Part shown: positions 41,503 through 63,610 of the stretch, piece after piece | Position numbering within the stretch: the stretch's first letter is position 1 | How the letters are laid out: every line of letters starts with the position of its first letter | Sequence record: NZ_CP119397.1 | Strand: one strand, 5' to 3' | DNA from: a plasmid | DNA: 64,000 bases | The notes under the pieces: generated by a model | Database searches by the model: none | What the model saw: the letters and a program-made list of their open reading frames with translations, nothing else | Told to the model about the DNA's origin: nothing | Position numbers and translations under genes: made by a program

Positions 41503-41580
41503 GAACCAAAAAGGTACTGTAACAGTGTTTTTTTTACATTTTTTTAGTACTAAAAGAGTGTCATTACGGCACATTGGTTA
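41503..41580. repeat. R1: copy of TAGTAC-AAAAG hairpin repeat family
   Basis: ...GAACCAAAAAGGTACTGTAACAGTG...TTTTTAGTACTAAAAGAGTG... shares GGTAC/AGTACTAAAAG cores with R2-R11. Confidence 0.55.
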
Positions 41581-41938
41581 TACGCTTATCAGCAGGCCTT
41601 TTCCCGCCGGGCCAGGCAAACAGCCTCTCCTTTCCCGCCTGCCCTGCCCGCCTTTACATGTACATAATTTGACCTACCCACTATCTTAGTAGATGTCACT
41701 AAGCATTCCTGCACCATCCATAAACAACAATAGTCACAACACGTTATTACCGTGCGGCGGCGCGTGACCGGACGATCCCCGGCCTGCGCCCTATAGCCTC
41801 AGCTTTGATGTCGTTTGACGAACACAGCGCCTGGTTTTCCGAACAGGAAAGAAGAGTGGCCCCGGTCACTACGTTATGGGACAGCCTGCCGATTGCCACA
41901 GGCTGCATCTGTGAATCACCTAACACGCGAGAGTCGCT

Positions 41939-43771
41939 ATGTTCTATCGACGTTTAGAAAGGTTGATTGATATTTTCCAGGCTGCACCCAGTGAGGCGCC
42001 CCCGAATAACGTCTCGTCCTATTACCTCTACTACCTGCGCCAGGTCTGGCCGAGCTTTACCGCATTGATGATTGTCGGCCTGATTGGCGCGCTGATTGAG
42101 GTGATCCTGTTCAACTACCTCAGCCGCATTATCAACATCGTCAGCAATACTGCGGCGGTAGACTTGTTTGATGAGTACGGCGGCGAGCTGCTGTGGATGG
42201 CGGTGGTGGCGCTGGTGTTGCGGCCGCTGTGCGTGGGGCTGCATGACATGCTGATCCACCAGACCATCAGCCCCGGCATGGGCAGCCTGATTTGCTGGCA
42301 GAACCACAACTATGTGATCAAACAGAGCGTGGACTTCTTCCAGAGTGATTTTTCCGGCCGCATCGCCCAGCGCATTATGCAGACCGGCAACGCCCTGCGG
42401 GACTCCGCCGTGCAGGCGGTGGACGCCGTCTGGCATGTGATTATCTTTATCGTCAGTTCGATGATTCTCTTCGCCTCTGCTGACTGGCGGCTGATGCTGC
42501 CGCTTACCACCTGGCTGCTCTGTTACACCCTGACCCTCTGCTACTTCATCCCGCGGCTGAAACAGCGCGGCGTGAAATCCTCCGCCGCCTATTCGCGGCT
42601 GGTGGGTCGCATTGTCGACAGTTACACCAACATCACCACCGTCAAACTCTTTGCGCACACCTCGCTGGAACAGCAATACATCCGCAAAGCCATCAGTGAG
42701 CAGACCCAGAAAGCGCAACAGGCCGGGCGGCTTATCACCGGCATTGACCTGCTGATCACCGTGCTGAACGGGCTGCTGATCGTGGCGACCACTGGGCTTG
42801 CGCTCTGGCTCTGGACGCAGTCTTTAATCAGCGTCGGGGCGATTGCGCTGGCGATCGGGCTGATGCTGCGGATTGTCAGTATGTCCGGCTGGCTGATGTG
42901 GGTGGTGAACGGCGTGTTCGGCGGCATCGGTGTGGTGCAGGACGGCGTGAAAATGGTGTCGCAACCGATCAATGTGGTTGACCGCCCGCAGGCACCGCCA
43001 CTGGCGATCCCACGCGGGGAGATCCGCTTTAACAACGTCAGCTTCCGCTATGACAATTACAATGCGGTGATCCAGAACTTCAACCTGACCATCCGCCCCG
43101 GTGAAAAGATTGGCCTGATTGGCCCATCCGGGGCCGGGAAATCCACGCTGGTGAACCTGCTGCTGCGCTTCTATGACGTCGCGGACGGCGCGGTGCTGAT
43201 TGATGACCAGAACATCGCCGATGTCAGCCAGGAGAGCCTGCGCGCGCAGATTGGCATGATTTCTCAGGATACGTCCCTGCTGAACCGCTCACTGCGCGAG
43301 AACCTGATGTACGGTAACCCGTCGGCCACTGAGGAGGCGATCATGCAGGTGTTACGGCAGGTGCATGCCGATGAGTTCATCGAACGGCTGTGTGATGCCG
43401 AAGGGCGCACCGGGCTGGCGGCGCACGTCGGCGAACGCGGCACCAAACTCTCCGGCGGCCAGCGCCAGCGCATCGCCATCGCGCGCGTGCTGCTGAAAGA
43501 CGCGCCGATCCTGGTTATGGATGAGGCCACCTCCGCGCTCGATTCGGAAGTCGAGGCCGCGGTGCAGGAGAACCTGGAGCCGATGATGGAGGGGAAAACG
43601 GTGATCGCCATTGCGCACCGCCTCTCGACCATCGCCCGTATGGACCGGCTGATTGTGCTGAACCAGGGGCAGATTGTGGAGATGGGCACCCATCAGGAGT
43701 TGCTGGCGCAAAACGGCCTCTATACCCGGCTCTGGCAACACCAGATCGCCGGGTTTGTCGGCGGGCCATAA
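41939..43771 (+). CDS. ABC exporter, fused permease + ATP-binding protein (ABCB-type)
   Basis: 6 TM N-terminal domain; Walker A GPSGAGKST, signature LSGGQRQR, Walker B ILVMDEATSALD. Confidence 0.85.
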   Translation: MFYRRLERLIDIFQAAPSEAPPNNVSSYYLYYLRQVWPSFTALMIVGLIGALIEVILFNYLSRIINIVSNTAAVDLFDEYGGELLWMAVVALVLRPLCVGLHDMLIHQTISPGMGSLICWQNHNYVIKQSVDFFQSDFSGRIAQRIMQTGNALRDSAVQAVDAVWHVIIFIVSSMILFASADWRLMLPLTTWLLCYTLTLCYFIPRLKQRGVKSSAAYSRLVGRIVDSYTNITTVKLFAHTSLEQQYIRKAISEQTQKAQQAGRLITGIDLLITVLNGLLIVATTGLALWLWTQSLISVGAIALAIGLMLRIVSMSGWLMWVVNGVFGGIGVVQDGVKMVSQPINVVDRPQAPPLAIPRGEIRFNNVSFRYDNYNAVIQNFNLTIRPGEKIGLIGPSGAGKSTLVNLLLRFYDVADGAVLIDDQNIADVSQESLRAQIGMISQDTSLLNRSLRENLMYGNPSATEEAIMQVLRQVHADEFIERLCDAEGRTGLAAHVGERGTKLSGGQRQRIAIARVLLKDAPILVMDEATSALDSEVEAAVQENLEPMMEGKTVIAIAHRLSTIARMDRLIVLNQGQIVEMGTHQELLAQNGLYTRLWQHQIAGFVGGP

Positions 43772-43810
43772 CCCCCTTTTTCGGGGTATCATCATGATGC
43801 TCTTTTGATA

Positions 43811-43870
43811 TCAAAAAAGTACTCTTAAAGCACCTTATTGGTACCAATAAGGTGCTTTTTTTACACCTTT
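43811..43870. repeat. R2: repeat-family copy with perfect palindrome GCACCTTATTGGTACCAATAAGGTGC
   Basis: Between convergent ABC and LysR genes; AGTACTCTTAAAGCACC...GGTGCTTTTTTTACACC. Confidence 0.6.
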
Positions 43871-61777: not shown

Positions 61778-62707
61778 TCAGGGAGCCGGGTGATCCAGCG
61801 CCTGGCAGAACCAGCTCACCACCCGGCCAATCACCGCCGGCTGGAACCAGTGCAGGTCTGCATGTTCCGCGCCGTCAATGATCACATACTCAGCCTGATT
61901 GCCGCGCGCTTTCAGCGCCTCGTACAGCTGTTGGCTTTGCACCGGCGAAACCAGCGTGTCTGCGCTGCCGTGCATAATAAGGAAAGGTGGCTTTGGCCCC
62001 TCAAGGTGACCCATCGGGCTGGCCGCCAGCGCCCTGGCCGGATCAGCCGTGATTGGCGCGCCCCCATGTTCTTTAAATGCCACGCCGTTGATTAACAGTG
62101 CCTGAGTGATGGCCGGCGAACGCTGGATGGCCTGCGCTTCGGGAGAGAACCCTTCAGTAATATTAAGCAGGTTGGAAATGCCGTACAGCGTGGCGGCGGC
62201 CTGGACATCTGACGCGTGCTGTAAGTAACGTCCTTTATCAAAGGTGCGCTGCCCGTTGGTCATGGCCATCATTTGTGCCATATAGCCCCCGGCGGAATCT
62301 CCCACCACGCCGATGCGGGCGCTATCAATGCCGTACTCTTCAGCATGTTCCCGCAGAAACCGCACGGCTGCTTTGCCGTCTTCTATTAAGGAAGGGTAGG
62401 GGTTCGGTATTACCCGGTATTCCACGGCCGCCACCACAAAGCCGGCTTTCGCCAGTGCATACCGCATACCGATATATTTTTCATGGTGGGCGGACATAAA
62501 GCCCCCACCCGGAAAATAGAGGATGGCCGGTTTTTTCTGCTCACTGCGTGGGATAAGCAGTGACATTCTCAGCTGCCGGATTTCTGCCACGCTTTTGACC
62601 TGTGAGTAGATAACATGGCTGATGGCATCAATCTGTGTTTCCCGGCTCTCAACCCGGATCACCTCTGCGCCGTCTGTATAGCCGGGCAGTTCGTTGAATG
62701 CGGACAT
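61778..62707 (-). CDS. alpha/beta-hydrolase fold-3 esterase/lipase (HSL family)
   Basis: HGGGF oxyanion motif (FPGGGF), GDSAGG nucleophile elbow; AAGGAAAG SD before ATG 62707. Confidence 0.8.
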   Translation of the reverse strand: MSAFNELPGYTDGAEVIRVESRETQIDAISHVIYSQVKSVAEIRQLRMSLLIPRSEQKKPAILYFPGGGFMSAHHEKYIGMRYALAKAGFVVAAVEYRVIPNPYPSLIEDGKAAVRFLREHAEEYGIDSARIGVVGDSAGGYMAQMMAMTNGQRTFDKGRYLQHASDVQAAATLYGISNLLNITEGFSPEAQAIQRSPAITQALLINGVAFKEHGGAPITADPARALAASPMGHLEGPKPPFLIMHGSADTLVSPVQSQQLYEALKARGNQAEYVIIDGAEHADLHWFQPAVIGRVVSWFCQALDHPAP

Positions 62708-62797
62708 GATTCTTGCTTTCCTTCTTTTATATGTCGTGAAGATAGGTATAGCGAAGATTTCCCGGTCGCAGCGCAGAATCAGAACGTCATCCAGGGA

Positions 62798-62875
62798 AAC
62801 GTGATAAAAATTGCGGTGCTTTTTTGGTACTAAAAGGGAATGTTTTAAGTGTATTAAACACACTGTTTAGGCATC
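62798..62875. repeat. R10: repeat-family copy fused to a degenerate iteron (AAACGTGATAAAAATTGCGGTGCTTTTTTGGTACTAAAAGGG...)
   Basis: Iteron-like 22-mer immediately followed by TTTTTTGGTACTAAAAGG core. Confidence 0.6.
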
Positions 62876-62910
62876 AAAACAGCACCAGAATTGCGACGTT
62901 GAGGCAGTAT

Positions 62911-63610
62911 AAACGTGATAAGATTTGCGGTGCGGAACGTGTGTCTTAACAGGTTGAGAATCCGGCATTTTATAAAATGCTGGGGAGATGAGGCAGATCA
63001 AGGAAGCGTGATATTGAGTGGGCTGCACTTGAAAATTGCCATAGAGATAAAGTGCAGGAATGGGTGGCGTTCCGGTGCTGCCAGACCGGCCGTAATTCCG
63101 GCAAACCGCACTTTTTTCTGCCCTTGTGGCGATGTTTCCTTACCCCTTTTCATCCGGCCCGGCATCGTGTTGTCGCCGTTTTTCTCAGTCAGTATCAAAA
63201 AGGCATCAAAATCACGCCTTTTGCGGGTGTTTTTAGTACTAAAAGAGTATTCATTTGGCACTGCTTTTTATCTTAAGGTGATAAGATTTGCGGTGGGATT
63301 TCTCACTCATTTCACGCCAGACTGCGATCGGGCTTCCAAACGTGATATGTTTTCGGGAGCGTTTACCTTTTGAGTTAAAATAGTTAATTATCAGTGGGTT
63401 ATATCAATACCCCAGCCAGGTGAAACGTGATAACTTTTGCGGTTCATCAGCGCGCTTTCAGGCAAAGGAAAATCCATACGTGATACGTTTTGCGGTTCAT
63501 GAGAAAGGGAAACCTATTTCGCTGGGTGATGAGTCACGATCCTGCAACGGCGATCCGGTTGTGCAGGAGGATCCCATGGGCTGATCGCCAAACGTGATAA
63601 GATTTGCGGT
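62911..63610 (+). repeat. dispersed iterons I2-I7 (consensus AAACGTGATAAGATTTGCGGT) at ~60-110 bp intervals
   Basis: Copies at 62911, 63275, 63337 (degenerate), 63423, 63476, 63589, all in same orientation. Confidence 0.75.
63195..63270. repeat. R11: repeat-family copy (…ATCAAAATCACGCCTTTTGCGGGTGTTTTTAGTACTAAAAGAGT…)
   Basis: Shares AAAATCAC and TAGTACTAAAAGAG cores with R3/R4/R1. Confidence 0.55.

Follow-up and report, generated by a model that had tools for sequence, protein, structure and literature searches.

Phased arrays of an 11-bp box flank a parA operon and recur across 22 kb of a Chimaeribacter arupi plasmid as its probable type Ib partition sites

The par2 locus of plasmid pB171 is laid out as parC1-parA-parB-parC2, and the parH unit of plasmid TP228 has an 8-bp period (a 4-bp box and a 4-bp spacer) and occupies one site. 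Elsewhere, centromere-type sites are scattered over the replicon and double as operators of the partition protein, as for the KorB OB sites of the IncP plasmid RK2 and in the phage-plasmid N15; these are single 13–16-bp palindromes bound by large helix-turn-helix ParB proteins. Type Ib systems, including pESBL, pB171 and pSM19035, as a rule carry dual flanking arrays (PMC7602700), and the omega protein of pSM19035 is at once a centromere-binding protein and a global repressor (PMC5016525, PMC9499535). Here we describe a family of repeat arrays in a 64,000-nucleotide stretch of DNA (the window) that forms the last 64 kb of the circular plasmid p251 (250,769 bp) of Chimaeribacter arupi DSM115072, whose beta-lactamase gene bla maps to 234,442–235,329 (PMC10587679). 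Twelve arrays of phased 11-bp units occur in the window; two of them directly flank an operon composed of parA and a small gene, here called cbp (centromere-binding-protein candidate), and the whole set spans 22 kb. Most probably, these arrays are the cis-acting sites, both centromere and operator, on which the type Ib partition machinery of the plasmid works.

By architecture, the closest described systems are par2 of pB171 and ParABS of pESBL, both from E. coli plasmids, in which, as here, a small Walker-type ParA is followed by a small DNA-binding protein, with arrays of short repeats upstream, over the promoter, and downstream (PMC7602700). The pESBL repeat is, however, a GATAACAA octamer, whereas the unit here is an 11-mer of GGYRCC type, and the p251 locus further differs from both systems in that its 87-aa Cbp protein could be matched to no described family by sequence and its arrays span 22 kb. 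By use of multiple sites as both centromere and operator, the nearest system is delta/omega of pSM19035, whose ribbon-helix-helix (RHH) protein recognises short repeats, arrayed in mixed orientations, at three separate parS sites (PMC5016525, PMC9499535), but in that Firmicutes plasmid the repeats are 7-bp heptads and all sites are promoters, while here the units are 11 bp long and half of the sites lie at gene 3′ ends. By 11-bp geometry, the best parallel is the type II system parC/ParR of plasmid R1, whose RHH protein binds two blocks of 11-bp iterons along a single DNA face (PMC9426499); the arrays described here are nearer to R1 parC than to ParG or omega arrays, although the R1 motor is the actin-like ParM and here it is a Walker ParA, with no parM in the window. 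TP228 offers a further likeness, since our ParA is closest to ParF among solved structures, the 87-aa protein appears to share the ParG plan of a flexible basic tail and an RHH domain, albeit with no sequence similarity to ParG, and parH is likewise an array of short boxes with AT-rich spacers (PMC3130281). By dispersal, KorB/OB is the closest case. A search for KorB OB sites (13 bp, TTTAGCSGCTAAA) and ParB parS sites (16 bp, TGTTNCACGTGAAACA) found no parS-like sites and only two OB-like matches, with 2 mismatches each and outside the arrays, and no large ParB gene was present among the Pfam-scanned genes of 41–64 kb. Functionally, this would be a type Ib ParABS locus, with an unusual dispersed layout; in the libraries and papers searched, neither the 87-aa family nor the 11-bp GGYRCC-type iteron appears to have been described.

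Each copy is a tandem run of 5–8 in-phase units, 55–88 bp long, in which the order of the boxes varies. An earlier note on this DNA had taken a ~60-bp hairpin as the repeating element, but a strong hairpin is present in only about half of the arrays, and the unit that they all share is 11 bp long, with the consensus R-Y-R-C-Y-W-W-W-W-N-R, meaning an RYRCY box followed by about five A/T positions and a purine. The cores of the units are GTACC, GCACC, GTGCC and ACACC, which together with the preceding purine give GGYRCC. Across 62 profiled units, positions 1–5 read R-Y-R-Y-Y in 89–99%, and the spacings between RYRCY pentamers inside arrays, taken with no hand-chosen register, were multiples of 11 in 82 of 82 cases, compared to 7% in control DNA. 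The conserved portion of each unit is the RYRCY box rather than the A-tract, which indicates sequence-specific recognition. The symmetric elements reported earlier were recovered as well: GGCACC-N5-GGTGCC occurs exactly three times where 0.01 occurrences are expected; the 17-mer hairpin core GGCACCTTAACGGTGCC is present with up to 2 mismatches at five loci (46774, 47631, 50013, 58516 and 60720), matching the five copies in which a recurrent hairpin had been listed (R3, R4, R6, R7 and R9); a repeat finder clusters seven copies of ~60 nt; and the 26-bp palindrome GCACCTTATTGGTACCAATAAGGTGC of R2, at 43830–43855, is perfect. These apparent hairpins and palindromes arise where adjacent units carry mirrored boxes with A5/T5 spacers.

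For a systematic inventory we used a position-weight matrix trained on window arrays only, with a score summed over five 11-bp units and shuffle maxima of ~15. The matrix scan returned 12 arrays with scores of 33–53, all within 41507–63250, and no site scoring at least 18 in the first part of the window (1–41400). Confinement to 41.5–63.3 kb, with nothing in the first 41 kb, thus stands as previously described, but the count of eleven rises to twelve: A1–A9 correspond to R1–R9 and A11 and A12 to R10 and R11, whereas A10, at the start of parA, had been missed. The copies listed before are all intergenic, and 10 of the 13 intergenic gaps in 41.4–63.3 kb contain an array, the exceptions being the LysR/MFS (major facilitator superfamily) divergent promoter and two intra-operon gaps; altogether, 861 of the 3666 bp of intergenic DNA, or about a quarter, belong to arrays. 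The gene modules between them are as listed in the note, namely an ABC exporter, LysR with an MFS transporter and an NTF2-like protein, a PemK-type toxin–antitoxin (TA) pair, a class A beta-lactamase, RtcB, a phosphoesterase with a phosphotransferase system (PTS) and a GH38 enzyme, a GGDEF cyclase, parA with the small gene, and an esterase.

The operon itself lies on the minus strand and consists of parA (61025–61660), encoding a 211-aa Walker-type partition ATPase of type Ib size with a KGGCGKS motif, and cbp (60768–61031), which overlaps the parA stop codon. Array A10 (61655–61716, score 34.3) overlaps the parA start together with a promoter-like site at 61679–61650, in the 'upstream centromere/operator' position, and A9 (60710–60768, score 44.7) lies directly downstream of the small partition gene, in the 'downstream centromere' position, so that the two arrays flank the operon directly; A10 was outside the training set of the matrix. 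ParA has a deviant Walker A motif and, as expected for type Ib, is a small Walker-type protein (about 200–220 aa) without an N-terminal DNA-binding domain. Its nearest solved structures are ParF 4dzz (E 5e-15) and the ParA 5u1g, it scores 154.7 bits against NF041546 ParA_partition, under the cutoff of 180, and it is also ParA-like in PHROG.

The 87-aa protein combines an N-terminal MVKRR tail with a C-terminal RHH-like domain. Pfam, NCBIfam and PDB sequence searches gave no match, but the protein falls in phrog_9169, a family of 'unknown function', and of its 242 homologs all lack a name or are labelled 'hypothetical protein' except two with incidental names. In 33 homologs, the MVKRR N-terminus is invariant and a core KAIRVPFNEYE...R(S/T)KLN..R.A is shared. 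An AlphaFold model places helices at residues 50–63 and 67–85 with pLDDT 85–90, with a low-confidence N-terminal tail, and Foldseek returned CopG as the top match (root-mean-square deviation 1.3 Å over 40 residues, probability 0.94), followed mainly by other RHH proteins (CdbA, PutA, Arc, ParD and AmrZ). A weak Arc-like PHROG match (E 2e-4) was obtained for the E. coli homolog. On these predictions, we assign the protein with moderate confidence as an RHH-fold centromere-binding protein with a flexible N-terminal tail. The geometry of the arrays would suit an RHH dimer that recognises one near-palindromic 6-bp box in every helical turn. The putative beta-strand is nearly invariant across the family, leaving no usable co-variation between strand and box sequence.

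As an independent test of the association between arrays and operon, we scanned 80 metagenome loci (600 kb) retrieved solely by homology to the 87-aa protein (43–95% identity), with an array threshold of at least 25. This gave 205 arrays, 164 of which lie in two zones flanking the operon, with a density near zero elsewhere; relative to the cbp start, the peaks hold 67 arrays at -750 to -500, immediately upstream of parA, and 73 at +250 to +500, shortly past the end of cbp. Because the arrays concentrate on either side of the operon, we define the conserved cassette as array-parA-cbp-array. Typical relatives have 2–3 arrays near the operon, and some have 5–6 within 2 kb. A tblastn search with the 87-aa protein found 151 PLSDB plasmids. 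In the plasmids of Kacie_13 (38.7 kb scanned) and S. ureilytica (34.5 kb) and in Rahnella pRAHAQ02 (40 kb), arrays occur solely beside the operon, and Aeromonas pS68-1 and an E. coli phage-plasmid have arrays at the operon plus one weaker site each, 3.6–5 kb upstream. A TP228-type parA/parG pair on the Serratia plasmid showed no arrays in the matrix scan.

We also ran an exact-pattern scan, which picks up just 3 of the 12 window arrays, over 185,579 species genomes. Matches in C. arupi were limited to contigs 6 (the window region) and 38, and further matches came from C. californicus and from three unrelated Gammaproteobacteria metagenome-assembled genomes (MAGs; Berkiella, Moraxellaceae and Methylomicrobium), all three of which also have high-scoring arrays. 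In the Berkiella MAG, found from the DNA pattern alone, two arrays flank a homologous parA/small-gene operon. The family is therefore not 'private' to this replicon, as had been proposed, being found in these MAGs, in Rahnella, Serratia, Aeromonas and E. coli plasmids and in the 80 metagenome loci. As far as sequence can tell, the alternative proposal of a dispersed operator for a replicon-encoded DNA-binding protein, comparable to KorB, is essentially supported, since the arrays flank an operon of parA and a small RHH-like protein.

The E. coli matches of the 87-aa protein are all phage-plasmid-like records of ~77–98 kb, and none are EAF-type plasmids. In these E. coli, Salmonella and Shigella phage-plasmids (NZ_CP058619.1 and ~100 similar records, ~77–98 kb, non-mobilizable and with capsid genes), the cassette directly follows a parM-parR pair, and an additional array is found ~3.6 kb upstream.

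The wider distribution bears on whether the boxes could be bound by another factor, such as the Rep3 initiator, ParA or a host nucleoid protein drawn to phased A-tracts, with the dispersed copies organising or silencing the origin-proximal region. A/T tracts every 11 bp are the classic recipe for bent DNA, and the array-bearing region is one-sided: it covers 22 kb on one side of oriV, and no arrays were found in the 7.6 kb past rep, so the cluster runs from oriV in one direction. Moreover, the two arrays nearest to oriV are interleaved with Rep iterons, in agreement with the earlier description of R10 and R11, since dispersed copies of the 22-bp iteron lie around both. These are A11 (62816–62874, score 37.5, outside the training set), which lies upstream of the esterase gene and abuts a single Rep iteron, with orthologs in C. 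californicus and Nissabacter, and A12 (63192–63268, score 33.2), which consists of two short box runs among dispersed Rep iterons near oriV. The Rep iterons are, however, a distinct and well-defined 22-bp family (ACGTGATAAGATTTGCGGT, 62788–63945 on the plus strand; repeat families D3 and D4) with six dispersed copies and 4–5 tandem copies at 63836–63945, and a rep gene of the Rep3_N/Rep3_C type, seen in C. arupi contigs L001–L006 just past the window end, is preceded by 22-bp iterons. We accordingly rejected an identity of the arrays with Rep3 iterons, with which they are merely interleaved. Furthermore, arrays accompany the small par gene in plasmids that differ in their annotated replication genes: Chimaeribacter and Nissabacter have Rep3-type genes, Kacie_13 has RepB and another replication protein along with a RepA regulator, the Serratia plasmid is of an IncI1 replicon type, and the E. 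coli record is a phage-plasmid. With arrays keeping to the small par gene, and with the box rather than the A-tract conserved within the unit, binding by Rep or by a curvature-driven host protein is very unlikely.

The remaining arrays, which occupy gene junctions at increasing distance from the partition operon, were compared with those of the sister species C. californicus and C. coloradensis. Closest to the operon, A8 (60424–60507, seven boxes, score 44.7) lies upstream of the diguanylate cyclase gene and has a C. californicus ortholog scoring 49.4. A7 (58506–58571, six boxes, 40.7) lies 19 nt beyond the stop codon of the diguanylate cyclase gene and precedes the PTS operon; its orthologs in C. 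californicus-type loci score 42.1 (L114, strain 2015-Iso6) and 47.4 (a metagenome contig, L023), and an A7 ortholog was not found in C. coloradensis. A6 (50003–50068, six boxes, 51.9) sits between rtcB and the phosphoesterase gene, whose 3′ ends converge, and A5 (48576–48648, 5–6 boxes, 44.8) occupies the divergent bla/rtcB promoter region; both have orthologs in both sister species (53.2 and 53.1 for A6, 47.2 and 44.0 for A5). A4 (47599–47675, seven boxes, 52.8), at the convergent 3′ ends of the toxin gene and bla, and A3 (46742–46829, eight boxes, 51.0) are the right and left members of a pair around the TA module. A2 (43801–43873, 52.3), with six boxes including the 26-bp palindrome, is found where the ABC exporter and LysR genes converge at their 3′ ends (orthologs 49.6 in C. 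californicus and 42.8 in C. coloradensis), and A1 (41503–41579, seven boxes, 44.8) lies between the 3′ end of a methyl-accepting chemotaxis protein (MCP) gene and the 5′ end of the ABC exporter (C. californicus ortholog 47.6, L114 6036). Overall, orthologous arrays at the same junctions were found in C. californicus for A1, A2, a single A3/4, A5, A6 and A7–A12, and in C. coloradensis for A2, a single A3/4, A5 and A6, with scores of 42–55 from operon-adjacent positions out to ~19 kb away. Within C. arupi, eight assemblies of this type carry identical ParA and RtcB, and their contigs are 99.1–99.5% identical to the window over 51–64 kb; a megablast search of PLSDB with 23 kb did not find a related plasmid.

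Several observations weigh against reading all of these arrays as partition sites. The link between the protein and the boxes is drawn from their association and from analogy with other type Ib systems. The RHH fold matches of the 87-aa protein are non-significant (E 0.5 or worse), and its monomer model lacks a beta-strand, which would form only in the dimer. Absence of arrays from the chromosome is judged by an exact pattern that senses only about a quarter of them. Most family members have just 2–3 arrays near the operon, so the ten distant Chimaeribacter copies could have a function other than centromere activity, or none apart from termination. Finally, A7–A9 are ~64% identical between species, compared to 68% for neighbouring intergenic DNA. 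Still, in neutral simulations at the divergence of A7–A9, 0 of 1000 replicates kept such motif scores; identity is no higher than in the flanks yet the scores are kept, showing that it is the periodic box pattern that is maintained and not the exact sequence. The dispersed copies are thus under constraint, which is visible only at the motif level.

These data can also be set against the idea that the arrays are a selfish or mobile small repeat, similar to a miniature inverted-repeat transposable element (MITE) or a repetitive extragenic palindromic (REP) element, that spread within the replicon and came to lie near the par operon by chance. The many copies, all in intergenic DNA, would fit such an element, as would the direct repeat of A3 and A4 around an inserted module and an extra copy on another contig that adjoins a Tn3 transposase remnant. 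That copy (L007 6535–6589, score 54.8) is on contig 38 of C. arupi 2016-Iso3 (49 kb; replicon not established), between a small open reading frame and the remnant of the Tn3-family transposase, beside trehalose-synthesis-like genes. Yet the arrays vary in length and box order, have neither terminal inverted repeats nor common termini, and lack short target duplications. In the C. arupi reference genome, matches to the exact pattern, with its sensitivity of 3 in 12, were obtained on two contigs only, and a search of Rfam for an already named repeat family gave no match. The same motif at the same two operon positions in very distant hosts, on otherwise unrelated plasmids that share the partition operon, is not the behaviour of a MITE or REP, and we regard this replicon-specific element, one of the two readings first proposed, as the least probable explanation of all. 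REP/BIME elements in particular were rejected, being hundreds of chromosomal G+C-rich imperfect palindromes, while the units here are A/T-rich 11-mers, and the exact pattern, which picks up 3 of the 12 window arrays, matched contigs 6 and 38 only. For annotation, such arrays should not be labelled MITEs or REPs.

A different alternative is that the copies are plain bidirectional intrinsic terminators, alike through a shared terminator shape and unrelated to partition. Six arrays at gene 3′ ends (A2, A3, A4, A6, A7 and A9) do form clean, stable hairpins (-12 to -26 kcal/mol) bordered on either side by A/T runs, among them A2 with -18.7, A4 with -24 to -26 and A6 with -22 to -24 kcal/mol, and a terminator scan picks up three of them. 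The other six arrays, however, lie in 5′ or promoter regions, where hairpins are weak or irregular, and the phased 11-bp boxes reach well past the hairpin stems. In the wider family, arrays are mostly direct repeats, with a hairpin configuration in 1 of 63 upstream and 3 of 74 downstream arrays, and 67 arrays upstream of parA across 80 loci would be unexpected for terminators. Since arrays stand upstream of parA family-wide and boxes extend outside the stems, terminators alone are insufficient, and we consider this explanation very improbable. Bidirectional termination, as suggested in the earlier note, is plausible for the six 3′-end arrays but is not a property of the family elsewhere; judged from sequence, the hairpins look like a lineage-specific elaboration that adds terminator potential. 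Between the MCP gene and the ABC exporter, a conventional terminator-like hairpin (CCGGTCAGTTGACCGG followed by T6) lies at 41385–41410 after the MCP gene, ~95 nt before A1, so this junction has a terminator of its own besides A1.

Comparison between strains and species showed that modules have been gained and lost at some arrays. The TA module (46955–47574, plus strand) encodes an 85-aa antitoxin and a PemK/MazF-like toxin (Pfam PemK_toxin) and is bracketed by A3 and A4, which share an identical 30-mer (46739–46768 and 47596–47625), exactly as reported before. Strain PJZK lacks the TA module and has one array, with a left flank like that of A3 and a right flank like that of A4. A single array without TA is also present at this site in C. 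californicus and C. coloradensis, which makes it most likely, from the sequence comparison, that the TA module was inserted in C. arupi with duplication of the array. Two more breakpoints fall within arrays: in C. californicus 2015-Iso6, a 6.5-kb metabolic module lies between the A8 and A9 orthologs with its right breakpoint inside an array, and synteny with C. coloradensis breaks at 43827, within A2. Other breakpoints lie outside arrays, including, in C. californicus, those left where LysR-MFS-NTF2 and the esterase were lost and, in Nissabacter, those of a glyoxalase that takes the place of the esterase and of a P2-like tail cluster. Because arrays form about a quarter of the intergenic DNA, the enrichment of breakpoints in them is suggestive only, and it was judged not significant once limited to intergenic DNA. 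The idea that the repeats seed recombination between modules finds some support in the TA indel, which lies exactly between two arrays, and in the two further breakpoints, whereas the predicted presence/absence variation at repeat boundaries does not extend to the other indels, and numbers are small.

Such changes could alternatively suggest that the arrays are sites of a site-specific recombinase and define exchangeable cassettes, like Acinetobacter pdif modules or integron attC sites. The TA module, the C. californicus module with one breakpoint in an array and the end of C. coloradensis synteny within A2 would all agree with this, as would a tyrosine recombinase gene that adjoins arrays in the Kacie_13, Serratia and Rahnella plasmids. 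On the other hand, there is no recombinase among the Pfam-scanned genes of 41–64 kb and, in the whole window, no dif-like site (28 bp; two 11-bp arms and a 6-bp spacer) with up to 5 mismatches in the 22 arm positions. The LysR-MFS-NTF2 and esterase indels break inside genes, a few breakpoints in arrays are to be expected given the share of intergenic DNA that arrays take up, and RecA-type recombination between 60–90-bp repeats accounts for the TA case. Recombinase sites are therefore hardly probable. The tyrosine recombinase genes lie right after the downstream arrays (Kacie_13, L017 20504–21295; Serratia ureilytica, L018 15551–16366; Rahnella, L113 20431–21144), and the enzyme may be a multimer-resolution partner.

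Taking the arrays as sites of the type Ib partition system, we propose the following scheme. Each 11-bp unit would present one near-palindromic GGYRCC-type box followed by an A/T spacer and, as the period equals one helical turn, the 5–8 boxes of an array would lie on a single face of the DNA. A dimer of the 87-aa RHH-like protein would occupy each box and bind cooperatively, coating the array, while its invariant basic MVKRR tail would engage ParA-ATP on the nucleoid and so position the plasmid copies. The array over the parA promoter would provide autoregulation. The layout array-parA-cbp-array is taken as the ancestral and usual one, with the arrays multiplied in p251 to 12 sites on one side of oriV, where the extra copies may act as additional loading sites, in a multi-site centromere or a local operator network, as for omega on pSM19035 or KorB on RK2. 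Copies at gene 3′ ends would have been shaped into bidirectional terminator hairpins, and the ~60–90 bp of sequence shared between arrays could serve as points of homologous recombination for gain and loss of cargo modules. A bolder and unlikely extension is that the arrays form a replicon-level organiser, in which a 22-kb multi-site centromere is combined with protein-coated insulators or terminators between every operon and with preferred junctions for swapping cargo (TA and metabolic cassettes) among plasmids that share the partition family; if true, the arrays would amount to a centromere-based counterpart of pdif modules or integron cassettes.

With the partition assignment, a widespread module, including phrog_9169, would gain a function, a DNA motif and a search matrix. 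Its carriers range from Enterobacterales megaplasmids and Aeromonas and Serratia conjugative plasmids to ~90-kb E. coli and Salmonella phage-plasmids, and in the cassette a type Ib motor appears to be combined with 11-bp iterons on one DNA face, a geometry that is elsewhere characteristic of type II ParR/parC. The Chimaeribacter plasmid is a natural setting in which to ask whether a centromere protein of RHH type could operate a dispersed network of sites for segregation, local repression, termination and module exchange.

Beyond the arrays, the GH38 alpha-mannosidase gene of the window (53840–56404, minus strand) contains two single-base indels, near 53999 and 54452, that leave the frame shifted for ~450 nt. 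Eight other C. arupi-type loci around rtcB carry the gene unbroken (860 aa), and the copy in the window reflects either genuine pseudogene formation or an error of long-read assembly. Two genes of the array-bearing region have relatives in the first part of the window: the MCP gene (39690–41357) has 72–82% DNA identity to part of the gene at 20293–22245 (repeat families D2 and D5), and the dCache-GGDEF cyclase gene (58590–60089) has a ~70% identical paralog at 22416–23954. Near the origin, C. californicus-type contigs carry a hipBA-like TA pair between a serine hydrolase gene and rep (L023/L024, 5195–6729), which is absent in C. arupi L001–L006. In the Nissabacter sp. SGAir0207 plasmid CP028036, the P2-like phage tail cluster is inserted after a truncated cyclase copy, ~1 kb from the partition operon (L021 11568–20264), and in contig L022, related to this plasmid, the cyclase is intact and a second Rep3-type gene stands in place of the tail cluster.

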